A DNA stretch of 64,000 nucleotides from Paracoccaceae bacterium (GTDB lineage: Bacteria > Pseudomonadota > Alphaproteobacteria > Rhodobacterales > Rhodobacteraceae): contig JAOGIM010000004.1 of NCBI GenBank assembly GCA_028150825.1, forward strand, positions 16,555-80,554. The letters are read 5' to 3'. The notes beneath the pieces were generated by a model that did not search any database, was not told where the DNA came from, and saw nothing but the letters and a program-made list of their open reading frames with translations. Position 1 is the first letter of the stretch. Each line of letters opens with the position of its first letter. Below are positions 33,850-49,847 of this stretch, in pieces. The translations under genes and the position numbers were made by a program.

Positions 33850-34226
33850 TTTAGAACAATATTCATTGGTGATATAGGATGTTTCTAAGAATAAAGCACT
33901 TATTGATCAAGCTCAGGCACTTTGGTGTGATTGAATTTGATAATTAAGTAAATTTTTTGATTTAAATTTGGCAAAAATAAATACTACCTTTATGCTTGTT
34001 GTTTTATTTAGAACGTCATGTACTCTTTTAAATGTATTGTTATCGTAACAAAAATAGACAAATAGGTTCAAACTTCTTAGTTTCTTTAGGTAGCCTATGC
34101 TTCTTAATTGGATCTGCGCGATGGCTGTAAAATGTTTTCTTAGGAACAATTTTTGTTTGATTTATGTTCTCCACATGAACCTAAATATTAACTCATTATA
34201 ACCAAAGGCTGCTCAGTTTCGATTGA

Positions 34227-34254
34227 ATAGAACAGCGGTTCTTATTTTTAGAAC
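34227..34254. promoter_or_regulatory. Candidate LysR operator upstream of the pirin gene
   Basis: Imperfect dyad ATAGAAC-AGCG-GTTCTTAT followed by TTAGAAC. The TTAGAAC word recurs at 33851 and 34008 in the same intergenic region. Confidence 0.3.
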
Positions 34255-34313
34255 TGCTAATCTACAAAAAAACTACTAACTGCGCGATATGATAACCAGA
34301 AAGGAAATTTAAC

Positions 34314-35228
34314 TTGTCTATTCGGCCAGCTATTTCGACCAGTCTCGCAAGTCCAACATTAGAAGGGGCTGGCGTGCATCTACACCGCGCATTTGGCTTT
34401 AACCAACCTGAACTTTTCGATCCATTTCTACTGTTTGATGATTTTCGGAATGATGATCCTGATGCTTTTGCAGGTGGTTTTCCATGGCATCCGCATAGGG
34501 GAATTGAAACGATCACCTACGTGTTAAATGGCTCTGTTGACCATAGCGATAGTCTCGGTAACAGTGGAAAGCTTAACTCGGGTGATATCCAATGGATGAC
34601 TGCTGGAGCTGGAATAATGCATCAAGAGATGCCAACCGGAAATGTCAAAGGCCAGATGCATGGATTTCAACTCTGGGCAAACCTGCCTGGTAGTCTCAAA
34701 ATGACGTCGCCGCGCTATCAGGATGTTGAGGGTAAAGAAATACCAGAAATAACAGATGATGACGGAACGATAGTCAAGGTGATTACTGGAGAGTTTTGGG
34801 GCCAGAGAGGGCCAGTAGACGGAATAGCTGCAGATCCCTTATACTTAGATATTACGATTCCAACGGGTTGCCAAAAATCCTTTAAGGTAGACACTTACAG
34901 AAATACCTTTGCTTATATTTTCGAAGGAGCAGGTAAATTTGTGGATGCGTCGTCACCAAAAGGTATTTTATTAGAAAAAGAAGTCTTAGGAAAAGAACTA
35001 AATATAAGGGATATGTCTGGCAATCGTACTTTAGTGCAATTTGGCACTGGTGAAGAGATTGTAGTTAGAGCTGGTCCAAAAGGACTGCGTTTTTTGTTAG
35101 TCGCAGGGACTCCCATACAAGAACCTGTAGCGTGGCATGGTCCGATAGTCATGAACACCAAAGAAGAACTACAGCAAGCGTTTTCTGATTTGAGGAACAA
35201 CCGTTTCATCAAACCGAACGATCATTAA
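34314..35228 (+). CDS. Pirin-family protein
   Basis: 304 aa. HPHRGIETITYVLNG..HSDSLGN...GDIQWMTAGAGIMHQE is the canonical pirin cupin motif. TTG start. Confidence 0.9.
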   Translation: MSIRPAISTSLASPTLEGAGVHLHRAFGFNQPELFDPFLLFDDFRNDDPDAFAGGFPWHPHRGIETITYVLNGSVDHSDSLGNSGKLNSGDIQWMTAGAGIMHQEMPTGNVKGQMHGFQLWANLPGSLKMTSPRYQDVEGKEIPEITDDDGTIVKVITGEFWGQRGPVDGIAADPLYLDITIPTGCQKSFKVDTYRNTFAYIFEGAGKFVDASSPKGILLEKEVLGKELNIRDMSGNRTLVQFGTGEEIVVRAGPKGLRFLLVAGTPIQEPVAWHGPIVMNTKEELQQAFSDLRNNRFIKPNDH

Positions 35229-35243
35229 TATAAGGACAAACAT

Positions 35244-36227
35244 ATGGGTTTACTGCAAAACGGGAAATGGGTTGATCAGTGGTACGACACCAAAGCAACT
35301 GGTGGGCATTTTGTACGAAAAACACCTCAATTTAGAAATTGGGTTACCATCGATGGTGCTGCGGGACCAAGTGGAGAGGGTGGGTTCAAGGCAGAATCAG
35401 GACGCTATCACCTTTATGTTTCGCTCGCCTGTCCGTGGGCACATCGTACTTTGATATTTCGCGCTCTGAAGGGCTTGGAAGATATGATTTCCGTCTCGAT
35501 AGTTCATTGGTACATGGCTGAGAATGGATGGACGTTTGACGTTGGTAAGGACGTAGCACCCGACACAGTTAATGGTGCACAGTTTATGTATCAAATCTAC
35601 ACCAATGGGAAACCCGACTATTCAGGCCGCGTCACTGTCCCAGTTTTGTGGGATAAAAAAACAAAAGCAATTGTCTCAAATGAATCATCCGAAATTATCC
35701 GGATGTTAAATTCAGCATTTGATGAAATTGGTGCGTTGCATGGTGACTACTACCCTGAACATCTAAGATCCGAAATTGATACGCTTAATGACCGTATATA
35801 CACGACACTAAACAATGGCGTATATCGTTGTGGTTTTGCCACCACACAAGAAGCCTATGAGGCAGCCGTGACCCCGCTATTTGATACGTTGGACTGGCTC
35901 GAAGGTATTCTTTCCTCGAAACGCTTCTTGACAGGCAATAAAATCACAGAAGCAGATTGGCGTCTGTTCACTACGCTGGTTCGGTTTGATGCAGTGTATG
36001 TGGGACATTTTAAATGTAATGTCCGCCGCGTCGCTGACTACCCAAACCTTTCTGGATATTTGTGCGAACTTTACCAGCAACCCGGTATCGCCCAAACGGT
36101 CAATATGGAGCACATAAAAAGGCATTATTACGAAAGCCACGATAGCATAAACCCGTCTAGGGTGGTGCCTAAAGGTCCAGTAATTGATTTCACGGTACTG
36201 CATGGGCGGGAAAAAATCAGGAATTAA
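35244..36227 (+). CDS. yqjG: Xi-class glutathione transferase / glutathionyl-hydroquinone reductase
   Basis: 327 aa. RYHLYVSLACPWAHRT catalytic motif and VPVLWDKKTKAIVSNESSEIIRMLN as in YqjG/ECM4. Confidence 0.9.
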   Translation: MGLLQNGKWVDQWYDTKATGGHFVRKTPQFRNWVTIDGAAGPSGEGGFKAESGRYHLYVSLACPWAHRTLIFRALKGLEDMISVSIVHWYMAENGWTFDVGKDVAPDTVNGAQFMYQIYTNGKPDYSGRVTVPVLWDKKTKAIVSNESSEIIRMLNSAFDEIGALHGDYYPEHLRSEIDTLNDRIYTTLNNGVYRCGFATTQEAYEAAVTPLFDTLDWLEGILSSKRFLTGNKITEADWRLFTTLVRFDAVYVGHFKCNVRRVADYPNLSGYLCELYQQPGIAQTVNMEHIKRHYYESHDSINPSRVVPKGPVIDFTVLHGREKIRN

Positions 36228-36232
36228 GGTTC

Positions 36233-37159
36233 ATGGATTTGGCGCGCACTGGTATATATTCTGGAGAAGGGAGTATGCTCGCCGAGGAACAGGCTGAAAA
36301 CTCGTGCTACTTTTATGAGCTAGCCTCCGCGCAATTTGGCTGGAACCTGAATTTGGTTGAAAAGGTGTGGGCCTTAAATTTCAAGGGTGGGCAAGATGCC
36401 AATGCAGGCGCTGGCGGCCATTTACCCAGAGAAAAAGTCGAAAGTAAAATCGCAGAGGCCCGCAGGCTCACACCTGATCAATCTGTAATTTCCCCAGCAG
36501 TTTTTATAGACTTGCAAACACCATCTGACTTTCAAAAACTTGACGATGCGTTGCGCGAGCATCCTGTCGTTATTCCCATCGGGTTTATACTGTTTGCGAA
36601 CCATATTGAACACGATATAGACATTGCATTGGAGGCTGGCGCAGATTACATCATTCTTGATGGACGGGGTGGTGGTACGGGTGGGGTGCCGTTAATTTTC
36701 TGCGATCACATATCTGTACCAGCGATCTCTGCGCTTGCTCCTGCGCGCAAGAATCTTCATGCAAAAACTGGGCGTAAGATTTCGCTCGTGATTACTGGTG
36801 GGCTTTGGGTTGCAGAAGATTTTTTAAAAGCCAAAGTCTTGGGGGCAGATGCCATTGCAGTTTCAAATTCTGCGATGCAGGCGGTGGGGTGTGTTGCCGC
36901 GAGGATGTGTAATTCAAATAATTGTCCTCTTGATGTTGCGACGCAGAAATTCGAGTTTCGCAAGCGCCTGAATGTTCAGGTTGGCGCAGAACTTTTGGCG
37001 CAATATTTTTTGGTAAGTGTCGCTTTGATGCTGGTTTTGGCTCGCGCCTTTGGCCACGATTCTCTCAATCAACTCGCATCGCGTGATATTACAACTTGGC
37101 ATCGCGAAATGGCGGACCTTAGCGGTGTCAGCTTTCCTGGTTTCGTCAAAGCCCCCTGA
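36233..37159 (+). CDS. N-terminally truncated, divergent glutamate-synthase-FMN-domain-like protein (possible pseudogene)
   Basis: 308 aa. Recognisable DGRGGGTGG, ITGGL and CNSNNCP..ATQ segments. The first ~100-150 aa of the family are absent and conserved blocks are altered (KGGQDANAGAGGHLP instead of a GQGAKPGxGGxLP-type block). Confidence 0.5.
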   Translation: MDLARTGIYSGEGSMLAEEQAENSCYFYELASAQFGWNLNLVEKVWALNFKGGQDANAGAGGHLPREKVESKIAEARRLTPDQSVISPAVFIDLQTPSDFQKLDDALREHPVVIPIGFILFANHIEHDIDIALEAGADYIILDGRGGGTGGVPLIFCDHISVPAISALAPARKNLHAKTGRKISLVITGGLWVAEDFLKAKVLGADAIAVSNSAMQAVGCVAARMCNSNNCPLDVATQKFEFRKRLNVQVGAELLAQYFLVSVALMLVLARAFGHDSLNQLASRDITTWHREMADLSGVSFPGFVKAP

Positions 37160-37224
37160 GCCTTATATCAGGCTTATTTTAGACTACCTGTGTTAAAGAT
37201 CCGTTTGATTGAAAAGAATATAAG

Positions 37225-37980
37225 ATGCCCAACTCGTCCTATCCTACTTATACGCCCAGCCATGGGTACATGACTGAGAGTATTCAGCAGAAGTATATTG
37301 CCACCTCAATCAAAGATAAAACGCTTCCCGACAATGCCCATCGAATGCCAGATATTGTGGCCCTTAATGCCTCTAAAGATCAGTCTAAACCGATTCAGTT
37401 TTGGCAGTTATATTCGGTTCTGGGTCAAAAGCGCATTGTGAGAATCGTCCAAAATTTTTACCACAGGGTCTATCGAGATGAACCTTGGTTTAGCTCTATC
37501 TTTGCGAGGATTGGCGATACGTCTCATCATGTCAGGACCCAGTCTGCGATGTGGCTCGATGTCATGGGTGGTGGTTTTAAGTATCATGGTGCTGAGTTTA
37601 GGTTGAATTTTCACCATCAACATAATGCTATTGAGCTTATGAACAAAAAGGGGGCGGAACGTTGGATAAGGCTTATGGTCCAGACGCTTGATGACACCGC
37701 AGATTATATGACTGACGATCCTCGGGTAAGGATCAGTCTAAACACTTTTCTAGCCTATTTTATGACAAAGTACACAGCAGACTTTGGCTTTCAAACCAAT
37801 ACGATGTTTGGGCCAACAAACTCCAAAATAATGCAAAAAATCAACCTTCGCAACATGTCGGATGCAGAAATTGAAGCCTTATCTGAGCTTGAACTGCGCG
37901 CGGCTCTCACTGGGCGGGGCTTCAGTTTAGATGAAAATACCCCCCTGCAAGAGCTCGTCCAAAAAGCTCAGCGTTTATAG
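37225..37980 (+). CDS. Truncated-hemoglobin-like (globin-fold) domain protein with N- and C-terminal extensions
   Basis: 251 aa. The core FWQLYSVLGQKRIVRIVQNFYHRVYRDEPWFSSIF...MGGGFKYHG...FHHQH..I......AERWIRLM follows the trHb group-II pattern. The C-terminal segment is LSELELRAALTGRGFSL. Confidence 0.5.
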   Translation: MPNSSYPTYTPSHGYMTESIQQKYIATSIKDKTLPDNAHRMPDIVALNASKDQSKPIQFWQLYSVLGQKRIVRIVQNFYHRVYRDEPWFSSIFARIGDTSHHVRTQSAMWLDVMGGGFKYHGAEFRLNFHHQHNAIELMNKKGAERWIRLMVQTLDDTADYMTDDPRVRISLNTFLAYFMTKYTADFGFQTNTMFGPTNSKIMQKINLRNMSDAEIEALSELELRAALTGRGFSLDENTPLQELVQKAQRL

Positions 37981-38034
37981 CCTGGATGAACAGCTGGTGC
38001 GTTATTTGGAAAAGAAAATTGTAGGAGATATTTC

Positions 38035-39071
38035 ATGACTGGATCGAAAGATAATGCAGTGGAAGAAAACAAATTTCTCGCAACGGCGCTGCGCGCTAAA
38101 GGTGAGTTTGTGCGCGGTGTCAGTGGCTTTCATGGCACTTTGGGTTTGGGTGATTTTCCCGCAGTGCCAGGCCGATATCATCTTTATGTTGCCCTTAATT
38201 GCCCTTGGTACCATTGAATTACCTTGGCTCAAAATATCTTTGGTTTGCAAAAGAGTATTTCAATGGATGTGGTATTTCCAAACAGAGCCCAAGAGCATAA
38301 CCCAGAAGGGCCAAACAATTGGCAATTTGCCCCAGAACGCATTGCAATGTTGACTGGCGCGCCTTTGCCTGAATGTGCGACTGAAACGGCAACTAGGCAA
38401 GCTTTTCGCTTTGTACGCAACATTCATGATGCGGAGGGCTCCAAAGAGCGTTCAGTGCCAATTTTGTACGATAGACTGTCTCGCTGGATCGTCTCTAATG
38501 AAAGTGCTGAGATTGTACGCATGTTAAACAGGTCGGCTGGCCCGCTCGGGATCCAATATTCAAATAAAATGCGTCACAATCTCTATCCTGCGGACAATAA
38601 TCTCAGAGAAGACATCAACGCTCTAAACAAGCTTATTTACATTGCCATTAATAATGGAGCGTATAAAGCTGGGTTTTCTTCAGACAAGGCGATTTACGAA
38701 ACGGCTTATCGAAAATATTTTGATGCGCTTGCCAAACTCGAGTCTCTTTTGACCGATGGGCTTCTTTTTTAACTGGTGATAAATTTACAGAAGCTGATTT
38801 AAGGCTATTTCCAACGCTTTATCGGCTTGATCCTGTCTGCTAAGTTCGGATGAAACTCAATGACGCAAAAACATTTGATTATCTTCATTTATGGCAATGG
38901 ATTTGCCGAGTTTATGAATTGCCTGGCGTACCCGAAAGCGGATCGCTTGATCACTGTCGACAGGAATATTTTGGCTGGTTCTGGAATAATGTTATTCCAC
39001 TTGGTCCAAGCCTTCCAATGCCCTACCCACAGGCCTATAAGCATCCAGATTTAGCTAAAAATGTGAAGTAA
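38035..39071 (+). pseudogene. Inactivated yqjG paralog (Xi-class GST)
   Basis: Good RBS (AGGAG). RYHLYVALNCPWYH is followed by TGA at 38215-38217, where the paralog has Arg. The same frame resumes (...SVPILYDRLSRWIVSNESAEIVRMLN...). A frameshift occurs in the T-run near 38765-38772. An in-frame TAA (38840-38842) lies inside the RLDPVC*VRMKLN segment. Confidence 0.85.
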
Positions 39072-39358
39072 GCAGTTAAATTCCGTATCTAAGCCCCCGC
39101 TCCTTAAACAGTGAGCTGGAGCAATTTAAAGGTGGAGGCTCATAGCCTTGGACATTAAAGCGTCCCGTTCTAGGGTTCTTATTTTTAGAAGGAAAGTCCT
39201 ATTTTTCCTGTCTTATAAATCTATCTTGCAATACCTATCTAAAACTTAGTATTCGGAAATGTAGCGCGCCTGATGGAAGAAACTATAAAGCATTTTAGTT
39301 AAGGCCGCCTGCGAGCTATAAGAAGTTTAATTATATAATAGCTAAAGTAAATCAAATT

Positions 39359-39396
39359 GGCGCGAAATTTCCCAAAATCGCGCCAGACTTTTTTTT
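39359..39396. terminator. Hairpin terminator between convergent units
   Basis: 7-bp GC stem GGCGCGA/TCGCGCC (39359-39365 / 39378-39384). A T8 run at 39389-39396 overlaps the stop of the minus-strand binding-protein gene. Confidence 0.5.
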
Positions 39397-40444
39397 ATCG
39401 TGCAGGCAAAGGCATCCAATCAGTCATTGCAACATCAGCATGTTGGAACTGGGGCATCTTGGCGCCCAAATCACCCATATTTTTAATACCTTGCTCACTC
39501 AAAAAAGATTGAGTGATCAGTGTTGGTGGCACTATAACGCTTGCACCAGGATCTCCTCCTGCCAGCATTATGGCAAGTGAGCGAACAGAAACTTCACCTA
39601 CAACTGCTGGATTTGTTGCGACTGTTGCAACCCAAGCGGAACCCGGCTCTAGCATTGCAGAAATATCTGCAGTTGAAACGTCGGCAGAATAAATATCAAC
39701 TTGATCTGTCAATCCCGCCTCATCCACAGCAATTTTGACGCCTTTTGCAAATTCATCGTAAGGTGCAAACATAACTGTGATGTCCGGGTTTGCCTGCAAA
39801 ACCGAACGAGCTTGGTTCGCAATACTATTTGCAATAGGGTTATCTAGAGTACCAAATACTGCAGCCTCTTCAATACCAGAATTGGCGGCTAAGGTTTCTT
39901 CCCAAGCGACATTTCTGCGATCTAGTGGGGCAATACCTGGAACATAAACATATCCCGCTTTAAAAGTATTTCCATTATCTTTAAGAGCCTGCTCAAGTGC
40001 TAGCTTGCCAAGAAGATAGTCAGATTGCTCTACCTGTGGGATTGATGTATTTTCAACGTTTACATCAAAAGCTACCACTTTGATTCCTGCTTCAACGGCT
40101 CTCTGCGCTGCGTCTTTCATAGACTCCGTCAAGCCGTGTTGAATTATAATTCCATCGACGCCAAGAGTAATTGCTTGGTCAACCATATCGGCCTGCAAGG
40201 CTGCGTCTTGTCTACTGTCAAAAACGCGCAAATCTACCCCGAGGGCTTCAGCTTGCGACTCAACACCGCCCAAATATGCCTGGAAGAAGTCACCGGTAGA
40301 TAGAAAGCGAACTAATGCAATTTTAACATCCCCTGCGTTATCGAACGGAGCGGGCATGTCAGCTGCAAAACTGGTTGTTGCCAGCCCAAAGGCTGACAGT
40401 GTAAAGCCAATTAGGCTTATTACTTTAACTTTAATTTGTTTCAT
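39395..40444 (-). CDS. Periplasmic sugar-binding protein (RbsB-like, CUT2 family)
   Basis: 349 aa with a signal peptide ending SFAADMP. Type-I PBP pattern: VALVRF...DGIIIQHG.... Confidence 0.85.
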   Translation of the reverse strand: MKQIKVKVISLIGFTLSAFGLATTSFAADMPAPFDNAGDVKIALVRFLSTGDFFQAYLGGVESQAEALGVDLRVFDSRQDAALQADMVDQAITLGVDGIIIQHGLTESMKDAAQRAVEAGIKVVAFDVNVENTSIPQVEQSDYLLGKLALEQALKDNGNTFKAGYVYVPGIAPLDRRNVAWEETLAANSGIEEAAVFGTLDNPIANSIANQARSVLQANPDITVMFAPYDEFAKGVKIAVDEAGLTDQVDIYSADVSTADISAMLEPGSAWVATVATNPAVVGEVSVRSLAIMLAGGDPGASVIVPPTLITQSFLSEQGIKNMGDLGAKMPQFQHADVAMTDWMPLPAR

Positions 40445-40475
40445 TTTTTTCTCCTTTGAAGATTGTGGTGATTAT

Positions 40476-41489
40476 TTAATGATTGCCCCCTCGGACACGG
40501 GACGATAAAGCAAAAGTGAAGATAAGAGCGACAACCAAAACAGCGCCCTTTACAAAATCTTGAGTATAATAAGGTGCATTCATCATTGTTAATCCCTGCA
40601 GTAGAATTCCAACAAACAATGCACCAATTGCAGTTCCAAAAGCATTTGGTTTAGCAGCGCCTAAAACAGCAAAACCTATAAGCGCAGCAGCCACGCTATC
40701 AAGAAGCAAATTATTGCCAGACGCAATATCTCCTCTCCCTAATCGCGCAGCTAACAAAATTCCGCCAATAGAAGCTGTTATACCAGATATCATATAAGCT
40801 AAGATCTTATACCCAAATACATTTGTTCCAGCTAATGCTGCAGCCCGCTCATTTGAACCAATAGCATACATAAGCCTCCCATGCCGGGTTTTTTCTAGAA
40901 AAACCCAAATTAAAACAGAAATGAACAAAAATATTATGACTGGTACTGGAATTAGTTTTTCTAAAAACAGATCAATCCTATGCCTGCCCAACCATAAAAA
41001 ACCTTCCGCAAAGGTACCGTCAGCAACTTGCCCCCCCGGCAATCGCATACCCGTTGAAATTGAACGACCTTCGGTTGGGATTCTTTGCAATCCTATAAGT
41101 AAAAACATCATCCCTAGAGTTGCTAGCAGATCTGGCACCCGCATTTTGACAATTAATAAACCATTCACCAGACCAACTACCGCCCCCATCAGCAAACAGG
41201 CCATCACTGCAACAAAAGCGCTCTGCTCTAATACAACCATCATGTAAGCGGAAAGCATTAATGCTGAAGTTGCAACAGAACCAATGGAGAGGTCAAAACC
41301 ATCCACGACTAACGTGCAGGTGACGCCTAAGGCTAAAATGCCCGTTATGGCAACGGATTGAAAAATAAACACAGCAGAGCGAGGTCCTGCAAAACCACTA
41401 GCAAAAAAACTAAAAAATAAGACTAATAATCCAGCAAGAAGTATGAACCCAAAACGAATGGCGAACTCTCTTAGAATGTCTTTGTTCAT
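40476..41489 (-). CDS. Sugar ABC transporter permease (RbsC-like)
   Basis: 337 aa, polytopic, with the CUT2 permease pattern. Confidence 0.85.
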   Translation of the reverse strand: MNKDILREFAIRFGFILLAGLLVLFFSFFASGFAGPRSAVFIFQSVAITGILALGVTCTLVVDGFDLSIGSVATSALMLSAYMMVVLEQSAFVAVMACLLMGAVVGLVNGLLIVKMRVPDLLATLGMMFLLIGLQRIPTEGRSISTGMRLPGGQVADGTFAEGFLWLGRHRIDLFLEKLIPVPVIIFLFISVLIWVFLEKTRHGRLMYAIGSNERAAALAGTNVFGYKILAYMISGITASIGGILLAARLGRGDIASGNNLLLDSVAAALIGFAVLGAAKPNAFGTAIGALFVGILLQGLTMMNAPYYTQDFVKGAVLVVALIFTFALSSRVRGGNH

Positions 41490-43009
41490 TGTAAACTTTC
41501 AGCCTGTTTGAGAGTGTTTGAATTTCCAGAAACTTGTGACAATAATTCTGGAAGATCTATATTTTTGTTCACATGCTCCCCGACAACCGCCTTTTCGTGC
41601 AAAACGATTATTCGATCTGCTATTTCGACCGCCTCATCGATCTCAGAAACAAATACCAATGTCGCACGGTTGTTTGAAGTGGCCCTGATATGTGTACCGA
41701 TATCACGGCGTGCTTTTATATCTACACCTTGAAAAGGTTCGTCTAGTATCAGCAACTTACAGGTTTTTAAAAGCCAGCGACCAACAATGACTTTTTGTTG
41801 ATTTCCGCCCGATAAGGTTCCAATAGAATCTTTACCGCCCTGGCAAACTATTCCCATCGTATCTATCATGTCACTGCAATCGACGCGCTGCCTTTTCTTG
41901 TCTATAAATCCAAAGTTAGAAAAAAACTTTGTAAAGGGTAAGGTCAAATTAGCCTCGATATCAAAATCGCCCACTATGGCATTATTTGCTCGATCTTTAG
42001 GGCTCATATGGACGCCGCTAGCTATTGCATTGGCAGGGCTATTAGGCTCAAAATTCAGGCCTTCTAACAGTATCTGCCCATAGGCCGGTTTTTCCAGTCC
42101 AAATAAAATTGAAGACAGCAAGCTTTTGCCGCTGCCTAGTAACCCAGTAATGACCAAAACTTCACCACGCGAAACAGTAATATCTAGGGGCTTACTATCT
42201 TTTGATAGACGTAGATCGCATAATTGCAATACTGGAGAAGACACTTCAGAAATGTCGACATTAAAATCGCTCATTTTCTTGCCTAACATTGCAGTAACTG
42301 CGCCTTCGTAGTCTAAATCCTCTCCCTCAAACTCTCCAGATATTCGGCCATCTCTCATAGCCAATATACGGTCCGCAATGGCTCTGATGTCGGACATGCG
42401 ATGAGAGATGTAAAGAATGGCGACCCCTTCACGCTTCAGCTTTTCAATCACCTCAAAAAGTCTTTTTGCTTCAATGGCAGATAATGACGAAGTGGGTTCA
42501 TCTAAAATTAAAAGCTTTGGGTTGCAAGCAACAGCGCGCGCGATCGCAATCATTTGTCGATCAGCTATGCCAAGGCGCGCGACAACGGTATCTAAATCAC
42601 CCTTAAAACCAATAGATTTTGCTATTTCTGTAGCACGTGCTTTCATTTCTGATCGTTTTAAAAGGAACTGTTTCCCGGGCTGCGCTAAACTGTCTAAAAG
42701 AAGGTTTGAAGTGACATCAAGATCTGGAATAACGCCATCATTGATTGATTGATGTACTGTTATGACCCCATATTTATACGCCTCAATTGGCGATTTAGGT
42801 TTGAAAGGTGATCCAAAAAGTTTGACATCTCCCGAGTCTGACTTCTGTACTCCACAGAGTACTTTAACCAAAGTGGATTTCCCAGCGCCGTTTGCACCCA
42901 TCAAAACGCTAACTTGGCCTGATGGCAGCTTCATGCTGATACCGCGCAGTACTTGGTTTGGCCCAAATGACTTTTTTAGATCGCTTATTTCACAAGCTAT
43001 ATCCGACAT
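41486..43009 (-). CDS. Sugar ABC transporter ATPase, duplicated ABC domains (RbsA-like)
   Basis: 507 aa. Walker A GANGAGKST, Walker B LLILDEPTSSL, second signature LSGGNQQK, second Walker B LLILDEP. Confidence 0.9.
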   Translation of the reverse strand: MSDIACEISDLKKSFGPNQVLRGISMKLPSGQVSVLMGANGAGKSTLVKVLCGVQKSDSGDVKLFGSPFKPKSPIEAYKYGVITVHQSINDGVIPDLDVTSNLLLDSLAQPGKQFLLKRSEMKARATEIAKSIGFKGDLDTVVARLGIADRQMIAIARAVACNPKLLILDEPTSSLSAIEAKRLFEVIEKLKREGVAILYISHRMSDIRAIADRILAMRDGRISGEFEGEDLDYEGAVTAMLGKKMSDFNVDISEVSSPVLQLCDLRLSKDSKPLDITVSRGEVLVITGLLGSGKSLLSSILFGLEKPAYGQILLEGLNFEPNSPANAIASGVHMSPKDRANNAIVGDFDIEANLTLPFTKFFSNFGFIDKKRQRVDCSDMIDTMGIVCQGGKDSIGTLSGGNQQKVIVGRWLLKTCKLLILDEPFQGVDIKARRDIGTHIRATSNNRATLVFVSEIDEAVEIADRIIVLHEKAVVGEHVNKNIDLPELLSQVSGNSNTLKQAESLQ

Positions 43010-43041
43010 AATGCCTCCCCAACAAAATAATCTTGGTCACC

Positions 43042-43080
43042 TTTTTATCAAATGTCAAGAATATTGACATTTGATAAAAA
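43042..43080. promoter_or_regulatory. Perfect 17-bp inverted repeat operator in the divergent promoter
   Basis: TTTTTATCAAATGTCAA-gaata-TTGACATTTGATAAAAA, with every one of the 17 arm positions complementary. Each arm carries a consensus -35 hexamer TTGACA facing outward. Confidence 0.7.
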
Positions 43081-43118
43081 GGGTTGAATGATTTATATTA
43101 GCTTGCAGGGAGTTTGTA

Positions 43119-44375
43119 ATGATTGATGATAAATATGAGCCTTTAACGATACAGAGTTTACCGCAGCGCTTGAAAACTATTTCTGAATTAACTGCGCTGG
43201 TGGGAACAGACACTAATTCTTGGAAAGTCGAAGAGGTTGGCGACGGAAATCTAAACCTTGTATTTATTGTAAAAAGCCCTGCTGGATCTGCTATTGTAAA
43301 GCAGGCACTCCCCTATGTCCGATTAGTTGGGGATAGCTGGCCGCTGCCGCTTTATCGCGCTTATTTTGAATATCATGCACTAACGCGGCAAGCCTCAAGA
43401 GCAAAAGGCACTGTTCCCAAGATTTACTATTTTAACAATGATCAGGCCATGATCATAATGGAATACCTAGCACCTCACAAAATACTTAGAGAAAAGTTAA
43501 TTTTGGGAGAAAAAGTTGAAAACCTGACAGACACTTTAGGGGAGTTTTGCGCGAACACAGCATTTCGTGGGTCTGATTTATCGCTTGATACTGCAGAAGT
43601 CAAAAGTGACCGCGCATTATTCTCGGGCAATGTCGCAATCCCTGCTATTACGGAAGGTCTGGTCTTCTGTGACCCATATTTCGATGCTGAAATGAACAGC
43701 CATACACCAGGGCTGGAACCAGTTATCAAAATTTTACGCAACGATATAGATATGAAGTCGCGCGTGCAGCACTTTTTTAGGCTATATTCTGCGCAACAAG
43801 ACACGATGTGCCACGGTGACCTTCATTCTGGATCCATTATGTGCACTTCCTCTGAAAGCAAGGTGATTGATCCAGAGTTCGTAACATATGCACCCTTTGG
43901 ATTTGATTTGGGCATGTTATTTGCAAATTTTTTCATGGCGTTTTTCTCACAACCAGAACACCGCACCAAAGATCTAGAAACTTACCAAAGTTGGATATTA
44001 GGCGTTGTCTCAGGTACTTGGTCAAGCTTTGAGAAAGAATTTACTAAGCTTTGGAATACGGAACGTACTGGAATGTTATATCCAAAAACAATGTTTGAGA
44101 ATCAAGGCCATAGTTCTGGCAAAGCATTACAGCATTTGTTAAACGACATTTGGAGAAATAGTTTGGGATTTTGTGGAATAGAAATGCACCGTCGATGCCT
44201 ATCTCTTGCCCATAATGCAGATTTTGAACGTATCGAAGATGCAAAACGGCGCGCGCCTCTGGAGGCACGGAATTTAATGATGGGCCGAGAGCTTATCCTA
44301 AACAGCGAAAAAATCACAAACACAGCCAGTCTTTTAAAATTAGCTCACAAATTTAACAGGGAAAATTTTTTATGA
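43119..44375 (+). CDS. mtnK: 5-methylthioribose (or 5-deoxyribose) kinase
   Basis: 418 aa. [14 protein letters not shown] motif and [10 protein letters not shown] catalytic segment as in MtnK. Confidence 0.85.
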
Positions 44376-45472
44376 GAGTCAACGGTGTTTCCTTCAGGTC
44401 TATTTGGTACGACAAAGAAGAGAAAAGTGTAAGGATTATTGACCAACGCTGGCTTCCGTACGAGTTCCGTACAGTGCCCCTTAAAACAAGAAAAGACTTT
44501 GCAATTGCCATATCTGATATGTGGGTGCGAGGTGCACCATTAATCGGAGCCACGGCCGCATATGCGATAGCTGAAGAAATGGCGTTTGATCCTAGCAATA
44601 AAAATTTAGAGTCAGCCTGGATCCAACTGAATGAAACTAGGCCAACTGCCATAAATTTGCGCTGGGCCTTAACGCGCTGCAAAAATGCATTGGAAATTTT
44701 ACCCGAAAACGCCCGAGCAGTTGCTGCAATGAATTTGGCGCATGATATTGCTGAAGAAGATGTAGCGATGAACCAGAAAATTGGGATGTATACATTAGAC
44801 TTGATTAAAAAATTAGTGGTGAAAAAACCCAATGGCGCTCCAGTAAACATCCTTACCCACTGCAATGCAGGTTGGCTGGCAACAGTTGATTGGGGTACTG
44901 CAACCAGCGGCATGTACCAAGCCCATGATGCAGGAATACCCATTCATATATGGGTGGACGAAACCAGACCAAGAAATCAAGGTGGTCTAACAAGTTGGGA
45001 GTTAGGCAGCCATGGCATTCCCCACACCTATATAACAGACAATGCCGGGGGGCACCTTATGCAACATGGGAAAGTTGATATGGTTATTGTTGGAACGGAT
45101 AGAACCACAGCAAGTGGTGATGTTTGCAACAAGATAGGAACATATCTTAAAGCATTAGCTGCCTTTGATAATGATGTTCCATTTTATGTCGCCCTGCCAT
45201 CACCAACAATCGACTGGACAGTAACTGATGGGGTGAAAGAGATTCCAATCGAAGAGAGACCAGCGCTAGAGGTGAGCCAAATAATGGGAATTAGCCCAAA
45301 TAAAAAACTGGAAACAGTACAGATAACGCCGCTTGGAACAGAGACTGGAAACCCAGCTTTTGACGTTACTCCAAATCGTTTAATTACTGGTTTAATCACC
45401 GAACGCGGCATTGCAAAAGCATCTTCCAACGGTTTGATGAGCTTGTTTCCTGAATTTAAAGGTAAAAAATAA
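44372..45472 (+). CDS. mtnA: Methylthioribose-1-phosphate isomerase family
   Basis: 366 aa. [39 protein letters not shown] and [20 protein letters not shown] motifs. 4-nt overlap with mtnK. Confidence 0.9.
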
Positions 45473-47509
45473 ATGATCGAAAATAGATTTTCTGAAATTG
45501 AGGCAAAAAGTTGGCGCGCTTCTGCTGGTAGTGATGCGGCAGATCAAGAGCTAGCAGAGCGAGTCTACACCTCTCGCTTGATCGGATTTGATCGGGATTT
45601 ACTCATGCATGGGGGTGGGAATACATCCGTCAAGCTCCAACGCAAAAACCTTTTTGGCGAACAAAAAGACGTACTTCACGTTAAGGGATCCGGATGGGAT
45701 CTTGATACTATTCAAGCAGCTGGATTACCGGGTGTATGGCTGGATGCTCTGCTTAAATTAAGACAGCTTAATGCATTAAGTGATGAAGATATGGTCAATT
45801 TTCAGCGTGCAAATTTATTAGACTGCGTCTCTCCAAACCCGAGTGTAGAAACTCTTCTTCATGCGTTTTTACCTCATCGATATGTAGACCATACTCATGC
45901 TACGCCATTTTTGATTTTAGCAAACCTTCCCAATGCGGAAGCCATTTGTCACGAAATTTTTGGCAATCGGCTAGGAATTGTTCCATATATTATGCCAGGA
46001 TTTAATCTCGCAAAAAAGGCGGCAGAGGTTTATGATAGTAACCCTAAAGTTGAAGGTCTGTTGTTATTAAATCATGGCCATTTTGCTTTTGGTAACACGG
46101 CCATGGCTAGCTACAATTTAATTGTCTCTCATACCAATGAAGTTGCTGATTATTTGAAGATGACAAAACCAACATCAATTGGGGTTCGTCGGAAAATAGA
46201 AAAAAGAGATGTTCTGCCGGTTTTGCGTGGCGCAATTGCAGAGGTTCACAAAGATATAGGCATAGAAATGCCTATATTGGATGTCAGGAATTCCGCTGAC
46301 GTATTGTCGTTTTTCGAACGTCCTGATGTAGAGGCCTTAGCCAAAAGAGGAATGGCATCTCCAGACCATGTTCTGCGCACAAAAGGTCAACCTCTGATTT
46401 TAACAAAGCATGATCTGGATGGTGGCAAAGAAAATATAATTGGCAAGGTTAAAAGATTTGCGTCAGATTATCGCGATTACTTTGACAGACAGGTCCAAAA
46501 TGCCTCTGAACCTAAAAAGTTAATTTCTCCAGACCCGAAACATGCGTGGATCGAGGGGGTTGGAGTAGTTGGTTTCGGTACAAGTTCAGCGTCAGCTTCT
46601 GCTGCAGCAGACCTAGCAGAACAAAATTTACGTGTAAGATCTGTTGGGGAAGATGCAGGGGGTTTTTATCCTCTTGGTGAAAAGGACATGTTTGATTGTG
46701 AGTATTGGTCGCTGGAACAGGCTAAGCTTGGCAAAGGGGCCGCCCTTCCTTTACAAGGAAAAATTGCTCTTTTAACTGGTGGTGCAGGCGCTATCGGACT
46801 TGCTACCGCGCAAGCTTTAGCTGCCAAAGGGGCTAGTATAATGCTGGTAGATCAATCACGGGATAATCTAGAAAACGCGATAGGGATTTTAGGGCATTGG
46901 CATGGATTTTATGAAACAAATGTAACCAAGGATGGCTCTGCAAAGTTGGCTATGAATGCATGCATCGAAAAATTTGGTGGCATAGACATATTAATTTCTA
47001 ATGCAGGTTCCGCACAAGATGGTGGATTATTAGATTTACAGGATGAATCGATCAGAGCAGCATTTGAGCTAAACTTTTTTTCCCATTATAAATTCGCGAC
47101 AGAAGCCGCTCGAATAATGAACATTCAGGGGCATGGTGGACAGATACTTTTCAACATATCAAAACAGGCTGTAAACCCTGGTAAGAATATGGGTGCATAT
47201 GGAATGCCAAAAGCAACCACAATGTTTTTAATGCGCCAATTGGCTTTAGAGCTTGGATCAGTTGGAATTAGAGTGAACGGTATAAATGCAGATCGTATAA
47301 GGTCAGGTTTACTGACTGACAGCTTTATAAAAAATCGTTCAAATGCCCGTGGCGTTAGTGAAGATGTTTATATGAGTGGTAACCTGCTTCAAAAAGAAGT
47401 TGAAGCAAGCCATGTTGCGGATGCGTTTGTGGCCTTGGCATTAATGTCAAGAACTACGGGTCATGTTCTTACTGTTGACGGTGGAAATACTGCTGCAGAA
47501 TTAAGGTGA
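45473..47509 (+). CDS. Bifunctional class II aldolase/adducin-domain + short-chain dehydrogenase
   Basis: 678 aa. The N-terminal half has HGGGNTSVK and VDHTHA motifs of class II aldolases. The C-terminal half has TGGAGAIG Rossmann, NAGS and YGMPK (YxxxK) SDR motifs. Starts 1 nt after the mtnA stop. Confidence 0.85.
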   Translation: MIENRFSEIEAKSWRASAGSDAADQELAERVYTSRLIGFDRDLLMHGGGNTSVKLQRKNLFGEQKDVLHVKGSGWDLDTIQAAGLPGVWLDALLKLRQLNALSDEDMVNFQRANLLDCVSPNPSVETLLHAFLPHRYVDHTHATPFLILANLPNAEAICHEIFGNRLGIVPYIMPGFNLAKKAAEVYDSNPKVEGLLLLNHGHFAFGNTAMASYNLIVSHTNEVADYLKMTKPTSIGVRRKIEKRDVLPVLRGAIAEVHKDIGIEMPILDVRNSADVLSFFERPDVEALAKRGMASPDHVLRTKGQPLILTKHDLDGGKENIIGKVKRFASDYRDYFDRQVQNASEPKKLISPDPKHAWIEGVGVVGFGTSSASASAAADLAEQNLRVRSVGEDAGGFYPLGEKDMFDCEYWSLEQAKLGKGAALPLQGKIALLTGGAGAIGLATAQALAAKGASIMLVDQSRDNLENAIGILGHWHGFYETNVTKDGSAKLAMNACIEKFGGIDILISNAGSAQDGGLLDLQDESIRAAFELNFFSHYKFATEAARIMNIQGHGGQILFNISKQAVNPGKNMGAYGMPKATTMFLMRQLALELGSVGIRVNGINADRIRSGLLTDSFIKNRSNARGVSEDVYMSGNLLQKEVEASHVADAFVALALMSRTTGHVLTVDGGNTAAELR

Positions 47510-47513
47510 TTTA

Positions 47514-48467
47514 TTGAAAAAAAACAAATCAAAACCTTATCATGACACAAAATCAGATGTTCTGGTTACTGTATCTGAGCTTTATTACAAGGATGGGCGC
47601 ACGCAACAAGACATTGCTGAAAGATTGGGAATTTCGCGGGCCACTGTAATTAATTATTTAAAGCGAAGCCGTGATCAGGGCCTTGTTGAAATAAAAATAA
47701 AAGGTTCTGCTTATCAAGGATCAAAATTAGTTACTGAACTACGACAAAAATATTCCTTAAAAGAGGTATATATTACAAATACTGATCATAAACGAACTTC
47801 ACACGAAGCACATCTATCAACGGCAAGATTAGCGGCAAAAGCATTAGAGGGATTACTCAAGAATAGAGATATAATAGGAGTCGCATGGGGACGAACCATC
47901 CAGCTTGTATCGCAAGAAATTTCGCAGCAAGGATTTCAATCCCTAACCATTTGTCAAATAACAGGCAGTGTGATTTCTGACGATCTCATTAGTGCAGAAG
48001 CAAGTGCGATTAGGTTTGCCGAAAACCTAAACGGACGCTGTTACACTCTGCATGCTCCTGCAATCATGTCTGAAGTAGATTTAGCTCAGCGGCTTCGGCA
48101 AGAGCCAGTTGTTTATGATCAACTTGAAAGATTGAAAAAGTTAAATAAAGTTATCTTTTCTGTTGGGGGTATCGATTTAGCTGATCCAGTTAGAATTAAA
48201 ATGGCTACAGATAAAGAGCTCACCCGGTTTCGTAATCATGGGGCAAAAGCAGTTTTATGTGGGCATATATTGGATACAAATGGTGAACATATTGAGCATG
48301 ACTTTAGCAAGAGAATAATTGGAATGAGACCAAATGAAATACGTTCAGTTCCATACAGAATATGTGTGGCTTCACAGCATCATGATGCTAGTGCCGTACG
48401 GGCCGCACTCACTGGAGGTTATGCAACACATCTAGTGATAGATAAGTCTTTAGCTAGATTACTCTAA
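47514..48467 (+). CDS. SorC/DeoR-type sugar-responsive transcriptional regulator
   Basis: 317 aa. HTH segment RTQQDIAERLGISRATVINYLKRSRDQGLVEI followed by a sugar-phosphate-binding domain pattern. TTG start. Confidence 0.85.
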   Translation: MKKNKSKPYHDTKSDVLVTVSELYYKDGRTQQDIAERLGISRATVINYLKRSRDQGLVEIKIKGSAYQGSKLVTELRQKYSLKEVYITNTDHKRTSHEAHLSTARLAAKALEGLLKNRDIIGVAWGRTIQLVSQEISQQGFQSLTICQITGSVISDDLISAEASAIRFAENLNGRCYTLHAPAIMSEVDLAQRLRQEPVVYDQLERLKKLNKVIFSVGGIDLADPVRIKMATDKELTRFRNHGAKAVLCGHILDTNGEHIEHDFSKRIIGMRPNEIRSVPYRICVASQHHDASAVRAALTGGYATHLVIDKSLARLL

Positions 48468-48506
48468 AATGGTAAAAGTGGTACTGGGAAAAGGTGATTA
48501 TTTTGT

Positions 48507-49763
48507 ATGGCAACTCGAAGCCACATTTTGGGTGTCGACTTTGGGACATCTAACTCTAGCGCAGGTTTTTTTCATGATGGTAAACCTAGGTTAATCGAAG
48601 TAGTCCCTGGAAAATATACATTGCCTACAACCTTCTTTTTCGATTTTGAGACCCGGCAGACGTTGATTGGTGAACTGGCTAATCAAGCACTGTTTGAAGG
48701 GTATGATGGGCGCTTTATGCGAACACTTAAACGCGTGCTTGGTACACCCTTGATGCATGAAAAACGTCAAATCCTTGATAAGCGCGTTACATTCGTCGAA
48801 ATTGTTGCTGATTTTCTACGTCACATTAAAACTCGAGCAGAGGCTACAACCGGTTTGGTATTTGACGACGCCATTTCAGGACGTCCTGTATTCTTTCACA
48901 GTTTAAACGACCCTCGCGAGAAACAAGCTGAGCTAGATCTACGTACTTGCTATTTAGCTGCAGGTTTCAACAAAGTTGAATTCATGGCAGAACCTGAGGC
49001 GGCAGCTATCGCCAGTAGAGCGCAGGGGCAGTCGGCGGAGATTAGTTTAATTGTTGATATTGGAGGAGGGACTTCAGACTTTTCACTTTTTCAGTCGGAC
49101 CATGAGAGCATGAAAATCTTAGCCAGCCATGGCGTTCGTGTTGGTGGCACAGATTTTGATCGCACAATTAGTTTCAGTCAAGTTATGCCGTTCCTAGGAA
49201 AGGGAACCCAGCTCCGAAACGTTCTGGGTTCGGGAACTTCAATGCTACCTAATGCGATTTTCAACGATCTCGCAACTTGGGAAAAGATTCCTTTTCTCTA
49301 CACCCCTCAAAATAGTCGATTGGCCCAAGAAATGTCACGGATAGCCATTGAACCAGATAAACTCAGGCGCCTGTCAAACGTAATAGATAATCGGCTGGGT
49401 CATGACCTAGCCTTTGCCGTTGAGAACGGTAAAATTATGGCAAATGCAGGACATAGAAAATCTCTCATTCGATTAGATCAGATTGAACGAGGGCTCACTG
49501 TTCCGTTGCCAAGTGAAGCATTGGCCAAAATCTTGGTATCGCATACTAATATTTTGCAGTCTACAGTGCATGAGACCGTCCAAAAGGCTAATTTGGATCT
49601 ACAACAAATAGATCGCGTTATCTACGTGGGCGGATCCAGTGTGATGACGGTAGTTGTCGAGACAATCAAAATGCTCTTCCCCGCCGCCCAACATTCATTT
49701 TCTGACGCTTTTACAGCTGTCGCTAAAGGGTTAGCGATCGCTTCCACTCGCATCACTCAGTAA
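48507..49763 (+). CDS. Hsp70-family ATPase-domain protein (YegD-like)
   Basis: 418 aa with ILGVDFGTSNS, VDIGGGTSDFS and VGGSS motifs. It has no substrate-binding domain. Confidence 0.8.
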   Translation: MATRSHILGVDFGTSNSSAGFFHDGKPRLIEVVPGKYTLPTTFFFDFETRQTLIGELANQALFEGYDGRFMRTLKRVLGTPLMHEKRQILDKRVTFVEIVADFLRHIKTRAEATTGLVFDDAISGRPVFFHSLNDPREKQAELDLRTCYLAAGFNKVEFMAEPEAAAIASRAQGQSAEISLIVDIGGGTSDFSLFQSDHESMKILASHGVRVGGTDFDRTISFSQVMPFLGKGTQLRNVLGSGTSMLPNAIFNDLATWEKIPFLYTPQNSRLAQEMSRIAIEPDKLRRLSNVIDNRLGHDLAFAVENGKIMANAGHRKSLIRLDQIERGLTVPLPSEALAKILVSHTNILQSTVHETVQKANLDLQQIDRVIYVGGSSVMTVVVETIKMLFPAAQHSFSDAFTAVAKGLAIASTRITQ

Positions 49764-49847
49764 CTTCTTAAGCGTGAACTAAGGTAACTCTTACCACCAA
49801 GTCTATAATTTTACCGTTTCTAAAACAGTTTGGACCAGTACGAAACA

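Follow-up and report, generated by a model that had tools for sequence, protein, structure and literature searches.

A candidate DHAP-shunt variant with an aldolase–SDR fusion and a methylthioribose-type importer in a marine alphaproteobacterium

Results

Two divergent operons form a discrete module

Positions 39395–48467 of the window (the whole 64,000-nucleotide stretch of DNA analysed, from a marine alphaproteobacterium) hold two divergent operons: a CUT2 ABC importer on the minus strand (ATPase, permease, and binding protein), and mtnK, mtnA, a class II aldolase gene, and a SorC regulator gene on the plus strand. The plus-strand genes follow one another with a 4-nt overlap, a 0-nt gap, and a 4-nt gap, in that order, and this tight packing makes the four a single operon. 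Every gene lies where an earlier note on this DNA had placed it, and both the divergently transcribed transporter and the SorC gene closing the operon were seen as that note described them. The 9.1-kb module is a discrete unit: positions 39375–48503 align contiguously to a related MAG (L003) at 86.8% identity, and the flanks are rearranged relative to it. The source genome is itself a MAG, 62.7% complete.

The kinase and isomerase calls made previously hold, as both proteins exceed their equivalog cut-offs. MtnK (43119–44375, plus strand), a 5-methylthioribose (MTR)/5-deoxyribose 1-kinase, scores 444 bits against TIGR01767 (cut-off 275), and MtnA (44372–45472, plus strand, overlapping mtnK by 4 nt), a (methylthio/deoxy)ribose-1-phosphate isomerase, scores 403 bits against TIGR00512 (cut-off 279). 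MtnK matches the Arabidopsis MTR kinase (2PYW) at 276 bits and B. subtilis MtnK (2OLC) at 209 bits, with its GDGNLN, HGDLH, and DPEF motifs aligned to both, and is 38% identical to MtnK of E. coli ATCC 25922; MtnA shares 60% identity over 365 aa with its E. coli DHAP-shunt counterpart. The DrdK that has been characterised acts on MTR as well as on 5-deoxyribose (PMC6079011), and in E. coli the MtnK-containing shunt takes substrates derived from MTA and from 5'-deoxyadenosine alike (PMC10986504).

A binding protein of the MTR-binding family

The transporter operon begins with a 507-aa CUT2-type ATPase (41486–43009, minus strand) in which PF00005 matches two stretches, i.e., two fused ABC domains. 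Its best NCBIfam matches are sugar CUT2 ATPases, every one of them under its equivalog cut-off, and its synteny is kept in about 12 related loci. A single permease gene (40476–41489, minus strand; PF02653 [BPD_transp_2], 1.4e-40) overlaps it by 4 nt; the product is RbsC-like (161 bits vs. a cut-off of 398) and 77–96% identical among related loci.

The periplasmic solute-binding protein (39395–40444, minus strand; Peripla_BP_4) falls in the 4RY8/MtrB-like MTR-binding family. It matches 4RY8, a structure entitled “5-methylthioribose transporter solute binding protein,” over residues 28–344 (phmmer, E 2.9e-61), and its AlphaFold model (pLDDT 85.6) has 4RY8 as its closest solved relative in VIA-align (35% identity over 314 aligned residues, Z 38.6), followed by Yersinia 5ULB (Z 34.9), whereas ribose binders reach Z ≤31 and ≤24% identity. 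Homologues occur in 4 of 300 alphaproteobacterial genomes sampled, in all four within 4 kb of mtnK, and one of these mtnK-linked operons carries an aldolase of the classical Ald2 kind, with 41% identity to the E. coli enzyme. The CUT2 assignment proposed earlier thus stands but its generic ribose type does not, given a 4RY8 match above those to ribose binders; judged by sequence and modelled fold, this is a transporter of a specific MTR-type family.

An aldolase–SDR fusion follows mtnA

The class II aldolase reported after mtnA is present, though only as the N-terminal part of a 678-aa protein (45473–47509, plus strand) that joins it (PF00596; residues 31–218 or, more broadly, ~23–226) through a linker region to a C-terminal NAD-type SDR (PF00106/PF13561; 430–672 or, more broadly, ~425–675). 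The earlier expectation of an Ald2/DrdA (FucA-like) aldolase gave way to a RhaE-type domain. Full-length alignment to the RhaEW model TIGR02632 yields 415 bits, below its cut-off of 568, and the protein exceeds the cut-off of a generically named equivalog (NF006192; 781 bits vs. 639). Across 62 homologues the aldolase Glu/His3 set (E126, H140, H142, and H201), the SDR N-S-Y-K tetrad (N510, S563, Y576, and K580), and D460 at the end of strand beta-2 are invariant; the last of these indicates NAD rather than NADP. Because pairwise similarity between the aldolase domain and E. coli Ald2 was not detectable, we infer the aldolase substrate from gene context only.

That context recurs. The window's fusion gene begins at the base following the mtnA stop codon, and mtnA lies directly upstream of the fusion in most of 80 related alphaproteobacterial loci with identities as low as 45%, where the pair is accompanied by mtnK and the same ABC importer or by mtnP (NF006492, 496 bits vs. 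437) and apt. In an evenly drawn sample of 300 genomes of the class, 51 encode the fusion; 47 of these also have MtnA, and in 22 of the 51 the two genes lie <3 kb apart on the same strand. Close paralogues of the fusion (62–69% identity), nested in the same clade, are found in unrelated sugar clusters alongside an FGGY kinase, so similarity within the family does not fix the substrate. We propose that the fusion is a (methylthio/deoxy)ribulose-1-phosphate aldolase plus aldehyde dehydrogenase or reductase. We found no paper linking an aldolase–dehydrogenase fusion to an MTR or 5-deoxyribose pathway, nor one describing the mtnA–fusion pairing.

An MtnR-like regulator and a candidate operator

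The last operon gene (47514–48467, plus strand) encodes a SorC/DeoR(Bacillus)-type repressor, predicted to sense a sugar phosphate (PF04198, 3.2e-52, with an N-terminal HTH), that resembles YjhU/MtnR, which represses the DHAP shunt in E. coli (31% identity over 308 aa, E 1e-57). Its best match in the ATCC 25922 chromosome is YjhU itself (173 bits; next paralogue, 93 bits). At several loci the cluster is complete except that no SorC gene adjoins it, which weighs against a general regulatory link.

The 109-nt divergent intergenic region contains a perfect 19+5+19 inverted repeat (43040–43082), the sole inverted repeat of at least 14 nt in 9.4 kb and a candidate operator. It covers the divergent promoters: each arm holds an outward-reading TTGACA, and the −35 TTGACA at 43064 is followed, after a 17-nt spacer, by a −10-like hexamer. 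The palindrome core, TGTCAA-N5-TTGACA, is kept in three related loci (L003, L089, and L008). No SAM riboswitch is present.

Methionine-salvage genes in the source and related genomes

The source MAG was searched for ARD/MtnD, a RuBisCO-like protein, and a further class II aldolase, and none was found. As this genome is 62.7% complete, such absence is weak evidence alone, and the part not recovered could hold MtnB/C/D, MtnN, or MtnP. In five cluster-bearing genomes (one of 5.0 Mb) MtnD was not found and no MtnB scored above cut-off, in line with the absence of mtnB/C/D noted earlier, and ARD was not found in a 100% complete, 2.0-Mb genome carrying the full cluster (G019). MtnD is rare in the class sample, with strong matches (E <1e-14) in 16 of 300 genomes; among the 22 genomes that have an adjacent mtnA–fusion pair, 3 show such a match. 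In the source genome and its closest relative (G003), MtnP was not found and no MtnN scored above cut-off, which fits an exogenous supply of substrate. Excretion has been described for free 5-deoxyribose in Synechococcus and for MTR in E. coli (PMC8102628).

Discussion

A proposed pathway and its alternatives

We propose, at a probability of roughly 0.7, that the module is an inducible DHAP-shunt variant that uses exogenous MTR and/or 5-deoxyribose—sugars excreted by other organisms in the wake of S-adenosylmethionine use—as a carbon source, with the fusion both cleaving the phosphorylated intermediate and processing the resulting aldehyde. The periplasmic binding protein would capture the sugar and the CUT2 importer take it in; MtnK would phosphorylate C1, and MtnA would isomerise the product to the ribulose-1-phosphate. 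The aldolase domain would then release DHAP and a reactive aldehyde, which would be acetaldehyde for 5-deoxyribose and 2-(methylthio)acetaldehyde for MTR; the fused NAD-type SDR would convert this aldehyde immediately. The analogy to RhaEW makes an acid (acetate or methylthioacetate) the most likely product, an alcohol being less likely. The SorC-type repressor may bind the palindrome over both −35 boxes until a phosphorylated intermediate frees it, switching on both operons. The kinase–isomerase–aldolase logic without MtnB/C/D and the uptake of exogenous 5-deoxyribose or MTR, both put forward in the earlier note, gain support from the MtnR-like regulator, from the missing MtnD and above-cut-off MtnB in five cluster genomes, from the 4RY8-type binding protein, and from the proximity of its homologues to mtnK in four of four genomes.

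The direction of the SDR reaction is where the pathway could most credibly differ. The SDR may instead use NADH to turn the aldehyde into an alcohol, either ethanol or 2-(methylthio)ethanol, which would make it the “unknown alcohol dehydrogenase” belonging to the classical shunt, a reading that we hold to be unlikely though a serious contender. In R. rubrum, R. palustris, and E. coli the shunt was seen to yield alcohols rather than acids in vivo (PMC5893883, PMC10986504), which weighs against an oxidative SDR; these alcohols are 2-(methylthio)ethanol and ethanol, formed by a dehydrogenase not yet identified (PMC5893883, PMC10986504, PMC13474568), and the PDB matches show alcohol/carbonyl pairs to be the substrates of most SDRs. 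Against this reading, the RhaEW enzymes of C. aurantiacus and B. subtilis, the sole relatives to have been characterised, made acid with NAD+, and the C. aurantiacus enzyme was inactive with NADH (PMC3870299). Asp460 likewise points to NAD, and an acid would presumably be more useful to an aerobic carbon-catabolic operon.

Alternatives that give the fusion another role fare worse. Dehydratases (MtnB) and epimerases belong to the class II aldolase superfamily, and with no pairwise similarity to Ald2 the fusion might dehydrate (MtnB-like) or epimerise the ribulose-1-phosphate and then reduce it, yielding a product other than DHAP; we consider this improbable, as the closest characterised enzyme, the RhaE domain, is an aldolase (PMC3870299), the metal-binding His triad and catalytic Glu are intact, and MtnB-model scores in cluster genomes fall far under the cut-off. 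MtnK and MtnA could also be the front end of canonical methionine salvage, with MtnB, MtnC, and MtnD elsewhere and the fusion serving another sugar, a role in which its paralogues' other sugar clusters and the incompleteness of the source genome would fit. The cluster genomes lacking ARD (G019 included) and above-cut-off MtnB, the recurrence across the class of a fusion placed right after mtnA, and regulation by a sugar-type repressor in place of a SAM riboswitch make this very improbable. Utilisation of rhamnose or another 6-deoxyhexose, as suggested by JGI names of homologues (e.g., “rhamnose utilization protein RhaD”) and by the domain architecture common to the fusion and RhaEW, is the least probable reading: the TIGR02632 score falls short, rhaA, rhaB, and rhaM are all missing from the module, and the partners are MtnK, MtnA, and an MTR-type binding protein.

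Relation to known systems

The bifunctional L-rhamnulose-1-phosphate aldolase/L-lactaldehyde dehydrogenase RhaEW (B. subtilis YuxG, Chloroflexus aurantiacus Caur_2283) shares with the fusion its two-domain architecture, length, and the catalytic residues of both domains. It splits a ketose-1-phosphate, giving DHAP, and uses NAD+ to oxidise the aldehyde (PMC3870299), and this processing on the same polypeptide is the logic proposed here. The fusion differs in matching another equivalog, and in having mtnK/mtnA or mtnP/apt as genomic partners instead of rha genes.

For the importer, the binding protein of the Thermotoga lettingae MTR ABC transporter (TLET_1677; 4RY8) aligns end to end with the window's binding protein, and the predicted MtrACB systems of Bacillus cereus and enterobacteria likewise place a CUT2 ATPase, permease, and binding protein beside mtnK (PMC3228920). 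Those enterobacterial and Bacillus importers go together with a complete methionine-salvage pathway controlled by MetJ or an S-box (PMC3228920), whereas the window's, with its sugar-type repressor and no riboswitch, would feed a DHAP-shunt-type route.

In extraintestinal E. coli, the DHAP-shunt locus (mtnK-mtnA-ald2-GRP transporter, with MtnR/YjhU as repressor) has the gene order of the module, with kinase, isomerase, and aldolase in succession and a dedicated transporter and a SorC-type regulator next to them (PMC12632272, PMC10986504). Both lack MtnB/C/D, as does the equivalent 5-deoxyribose pathway of Bacillus thuringiensis (DrdK/DrdI/DrdA), some clusters of which also carry sugar transporters (PMC6079011). 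They differ in the aldolase (FucA-like Ald2/DrdA of ~215 aa vs. a RhaE-type domain fused to an SDR), in the importer (a GRP permease in E. coli vs. an ABC system with an MTR-type binding protein), and in the regulator gene (convergent to the operon in E. coli vs. inside it). The MtnP-MtnA-Ald2 shunt of R. rubrum and R. palustris is, like the window, alphaproteobacterial; it pairs a small Ald2 with a separate, not yet identified alcohol dehydrogenase (PMC5893883, PMC13474568) and has MtnP where the window has MtnK and an importer. Many of the fusion's relatives are encoded downstream of mtnP-(apt)-mtnA, as in the R. rubrum/R. palustris type.

Module Layout and Genomic Setting

Two divergent operons, 109 nt apart in the ORF listing, make up the module at 39395–48467. 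On the minus strand lie genes for a periplasmic binding protein (SBP; 39395–40444), a single permease (40476–41489) and an ATPase with two ABC domains (41486–43009), as identified by ORF listing and profile scans; on the plus strand lie mtnK (43119–44375; TIGR01767), mtnA (44372–45472; TIGR00512), a gene for a 678-aa protein in which a class II aldolase is fused to a short-chain dehydrogenase (SDR; 45473–47509; profile scans, NF006192) and a SorC-type regulator gene (47514–48467; PF04198 plus HTH). The gene list of the earlier note is borne out by these ORF calls and profile scans. Since no more than 4 nt separates any two neighbours among the four plus-strand genes (a 4-nt overlap between mtnK and mtnA, then a 0-nt gap, then a 4-nt gap), they constitute one operon, and the SorC gene does close it, as that note had proposed.

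The module stands as a unit of its own: window 39375–48503 forms one contiguous alignment, at 86.8% identity, with the corresponding locus of a Tara Oceans MAG (L003, the closest MAG), and both flanks are rearranged. Relative to that MAG (window 21754–39375 compared), ∼15 kb of DNA directly upstream is additional or rearranged, and an Hsp70-like gene (48507–49763) is present there only in part (window 48503–49772 compared), i.e., module integrity is kept while the surroundings shuffle. We considered this Hsp70-like gene (YegD-like, below cut-off) as a module member and rejected it, because its counterpart in the closest relative is truncated and because it falls outside the contiguous homology block. 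Elsewhere in the window, a tRNA-Sec gene occupies 55082–55173 (minus strand; RF01852, 69 bits). The genome itself is a 2.34-Mb MAG (110 contigs, 62.7% complete), and related loci come from Rhodobacterales, Rhizobiaceae and unclassified marine Alphaproteobacteria. Synteny counts below were taken from tblastn and genome-search coordinates, with ORF calls in high-GC loci (e.g., L086) being partly antisense.

Kinase, Isomerase and Fused Aldolase

The earlier note had set the locus beside known pathways that combine a kinase, an isomerase and a class II aldolase; these precedents were rightly chosen, and the pathway logic is thus already known. MtnK, which we compared with MTR (5-methylthioribose) kinases in the PDB and with E. 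coli MtnK, scores 444 bits against a TIGR01767 cut-off of 275, and its kinase motifs align to 2PYW; it is the MtnK/DrdK-family kinase that the DHAP shunt (the E. coli and R. rubrum salvage route with aldolase Ald2) and the 5-deoxyribose pathway (EC 2.7.1.100, 5.3.1.23, 4.1.2.62) call for. MtnA, the MtnA/DrdI isomerase encoded in the kinase operon, scores 403 bits against a TIGR00512 cut-off of 279 and is 60% identical to the MtnA of the E. coli DHAP shunt. Separating MtnK from DrdK clades would decide little, because characterised DrdK accepts both 5-deoxyribose and MTR (PMC6079011).

The third enzyme is of another kind. The aldolase had been placed directly after mtnA, and there it is, its gene beginning at the base after the mtnA stop; as to type, it is not of the Ald2/DrdA sort (FucA-like, ∼215 aa), BLASTP against E. 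coli Ald2 giving no significant alignment (best E 3.1), and it is fused to an SDR. Profile scans place the aldolase domain N-terminally and the SDR C-terminally, and the whole protein passes the NF006192 equivalog cut-off (781 bits against 639, with residues 3–678 covering profile positions 2–685 of 685), a model named only “bifunctional aldolase/short-chain dehydrogenase,” with no specific function. Public annotations call the protein “RhaD” or give it a generic name. The aldolase domain, which is RhaE-type and the sole class II aldolase found in this 62.7% complete genome, matches an uncharacterised structure (3M4R, E 3e-41) in a PDB sequence search.

Such names raise the reading that the fusion serves rhamnose utilisation. 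RhaEW cleaves rhamnulose-1-phosphate to yield DHAP and converts lactaldehyde to lactate with NAD+ (PMC3870299). The fusion falls short of both RhaEW equivalogs (TIGR02632, 415 against 568; NF006189, 392 against 634), and its neighbours are mtnK, mtnA, an MTR-type ABC importer and SorC rather than those of a rhamnose locus (rhaA, rhaB, rhaM, rhamnose transporter). We therefore reject rhamnose utilisation on profile scores and neighbour families.

Glu126 and His140/His142/His201 (aldolase metal and acid–base residues) are invariant in 62 homologues, as are Asn510, Ser563, Tyr576 and Lys580 of the SDR; because of this invariance both domains look active from sequence. Asp460, at the end of strand β2, is likewise invariant in the 62 and indicates NAD. 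A class II aldolase with intact catalytic residues thus stands immediately 3′ of the isomerase gene, as in the DHAP shunt.

Linkage of mtnA and the Fusion Across Alphaproteobacteria

In most of the 80 related loci the gene immediately before the fusion is mtnA, and this holds down to 45% identity. The tree of fusion proteins has two halves. One is marine, mainly Rhodobacterales, with importer, mtnK, mtnA and fusion together in about a dozen loci; the other spans many other Alphaproteobacteria, in which mtnP (NF006492, 496 bits against 437), apt and sometimes GST precede mtnA and the fusion. In L067, L073, L057, L041 and further clade II loci, this second string recurs in a housekeeping arrangement headed, ∼5 kb upstream of the fusion, by cytochrome bc1 genes (Rieske, cytochrome b, c1), with adenine salvage built into it.

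In a class sample of 300 evenly drawn alphaproteobacterial genomes, MtnA occurs in 135 and the fusion in 51, and 47 of these 51 also carry MtnA. The two genes lie ≤3 kb apart on the same strand in 22 of the 51 fusion genomes, directly adjacent in 19 of those 22; adjacency was counted by hand from coordinate tables, and the 29 non-adjacent cases include an unpublished genome (G245) without which the count is 22/50.

Paralogues 62–69% identical nest within the marine half, yet their gene clusters encode an FGGY kinase, a 2-hydroxyacid dehydrogenase and a small aldolase; the substrate is therefore not fixed by family membership alone. In Hoeflea and related genomes (L012:4742-13500, L016:4101-13415, L017:8225-13500), a 62% identical paralogue follows a cluster of SBP, ABC ATPase, FGGY kinase, SorC, 2-hydroxyacid dehydrogenase and small class II aldolase genes and is followed by an SBP56 homologue (PF05694, 694 bits). 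The SBP56 family includes methanethiol oxidase. Possibly this cluster serves as a second route for a methylthio sugar, with the kinase exchanged.

Importer and Binding Protein

The divergent transporter had been called a ribose-type CUT2 importer. ABC importer genes do occupy the opposite strand; the ribose label gives way, as the SBP is closest to an MTR type rather than to ribose binders. Among PDB entries its strongest sequence match is 4RY8 (E 2.9e-61, residues 28–344), titled [quoted passage not shown] followed by 5ULB from Yersinia. The AlphaFold model (pLDDT 85.6) aligns to 4RY8 over 314 residues with Z 38.6 and 35% identity, clearly above the ribose-binding proteins (Z ≤ 31, identity ≤24%). 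Judged by sequence and modelled fold, the importer is of the methylthioribose type.

Homologues of the SBP are rare, found in only 4 of the 300 class-sample genomes (73–74% and 47% identity), and in 4/4 of these mtnK lies ≤4 kb away; about 12 loci are syntenic overall. The closed 2.0-Mb genome G019 carries the complete cluster, fusion included. In G222, GntR-mtnK-ATPase-permease-SBP-mtnA is followed by a small aldolase of the classical kind (41% identity to E. coli Ald2); G088 shares the G222-like arrangement without an adjacent aldolase; and in G275 the SBP, mtnK and mtnA genes neighbour a SorC gene, no aldolase lying next to them and the fusion being absent from that contig. As the aldolases of these four genomes differ, the importer family travels with MtnK whichever aldolase is used. 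The G222 locus (L087:6097-13555, closed 3.9-Mb genome; its GntR carries UTRA) places the MTR-type importer family inside a classical DHAP-shunt operon, and a stand-alone SDR lies 0.8 kb beyond the Ald2-like gene, past an opposite-strand alternative oxidase gene.

Between lineages (window 39395–47509 against L008, L009, L011, L015, L018 and L021), SBP and permease are 82–85% identical, whereas MtnK (54–61%), the fusion (60–66%) and the ATPase (57–59%) are far less conserved. A ribose-like “MtrACB” importer beside mtnK is an earlier, uncharacterised prediction for Bacillus cereus and enterobacteria (PMC3228920). In E. coli ATCC 25922, the DHAP-shunt locus has a GRP-family sugar transporter gene between ald2 and mtnR (L085:8942-9946).

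Regulator and Candidate Operator

The regulator combines an HTH with a SorC sugar-binding domain (PF04198, 3.2e-52); over 308 residues it shares 31% identity with E. coli YjhU (E 1e-57), its best match on the ATCC 25922 chromosome (173 bits; next paralogue 93 bits). YjhU represses the DHAP shunt and has been renamed MtnR (PMC12632272). Between the operons, a perfect 19+5+19 inverted repeat (43040–43082), the only inverted repeat ≥14 nt within 9.4 kb, is a candidate operator. Each arm contains TTGACA reading outward, and the core TGTCAA-N5-TTGACA recurs in three related loci (L003, L089, L008). A promoter and terminator consensus scan gave counts (25 and 12) that do not stand above those expected from shuffling (23 and 10.8, respectively), and from it we used only hexamer positions inside the palindrome. 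No SAM riboswitch or other Rfam element was found in window 39000–49000 at E up to 1, and control therefore looks sugar-responsive rather than methionine-responsive.

Substrate Source and Proposed Pathway

As to canonical methionine salvage, ARD (MtnD), a RuBisCO-like protein and a second class II aldolase were not found in the window's own genome, weak evidence at 62.7% completeness; in five other cluster-bearing genomes (one of 5.0 Mb) ARD was not found and MtnB did not exceed cut-off, and G019 (100% complete) has no ARD. Strong ARD matches (E < 1e-14) occur in 16 of the 300 class-sample genomes; 3 of the 22 genomes whose mtnA and fusion are adjacent have such a match. In the own genome (62.7% complete) and its closest relative (G003), MtnP was not found and MtnN was not above cut-off; the sole PNP-family gene found in the former encodes an inosine/guanosine phosphorylase. 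A free-sugar kinase without a nucleosidase to make the sugar fits external supply, within the limits of genome completeness. MTA and 5′-deoxyadenosine are made by every SAM-using cell, and the derived sugars are excreted by many organisms. Specifically, Synechococcus elongatus excretes free 5-deoxyribose and E. coli excretes MTR (PMC8102628).

On top of the gene identities, synteny, conserved residues and transporter–kinase linkage shown above, we infer that the module would import free methylthioribose and/or 5-deoxyribose, which MtnK would phosphorylate and MtnA isomerise; the fusion would then split the MtnA product into DHAP and an aldehyde that its SDR domain would convert at once. The MtnR-like repressor probably shuts both promoters via the palindrome until a phosphorylated intermediate, its presumed effector, appears. 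As to SDR direction, we favour oxidation to acetate or methylthioacetate over reduction at about 60:40, because of the RhaEW homology and the NAD-type cofactor site. C. aurantiacus RhaEW showed no activity with NADH (PMC3870299); arguing against oxidation, bacteria that run the classical shunt form alcohols in vivo (PMC5893883, PMC10986504). A further step, which we rate a long shot, is that the fusion oxidises 2-(methylthio)acetaldehyde to methylthioacetate and so opens an undescribed aerobic route that would let marine Alphaproteobacteria draw on dissolved MTR for carbon (as DHAP) and reduced sulfur (as methanethiol released downstream). The SBP56 homologue directly after the close fusion paralogue in the Hoeflea-type loci (L012, L016, L017) is a hint in that direction.

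If the proposed pathway is true, the fusion (51/300 sampled alphaproteobacterial species genomes) would be the missing DHAP-shunt aldolase in these bacteria and would also supply the aldehyde-processing step, for which the enzyme is still given as unknown in a 2026 review (PMC13474568). It would also become possible to assign a defined ABC importer family to methylthioribose/5-deoxyribose, and some marine heterotrophs would be equipped to feed on excreted SAM by-products, a cross-feeding link absent from current annotation.

Comparison With Known Systems

The fusion goes unmentioned in the DHAP-shunt literature covered here (PMC6079011, PMC6302742, PMC5893883, PMC10986504, PMC12632272, PMC13474568), a set that stops short of the two founding papers and their supplements. 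Against that literature, three features are new: a RhaEW-type fusion as putative shunt aldolase, an MTR-type ABC importer paired with it and, in marine Alphaproteobacteria, a regulator resembling MtnR.

RhaEW is a two-domain aldolase/SDR relative; the fusion differs in scoring below the RhaEW models and in partnering mtnK and mtnA rather than rha genes. The mtnP/apt/mtnA loci of the second half of the tree correspond to the R. rubrum version of the DHAP shunt, the fusion replacing Ald2. In E. coli the locus reads mtnK-mtnA-ald2-GRP transporter-yjhU, the same logic as in the module described here, with the GRP transporter as the functional counterpart of the ABC importer.
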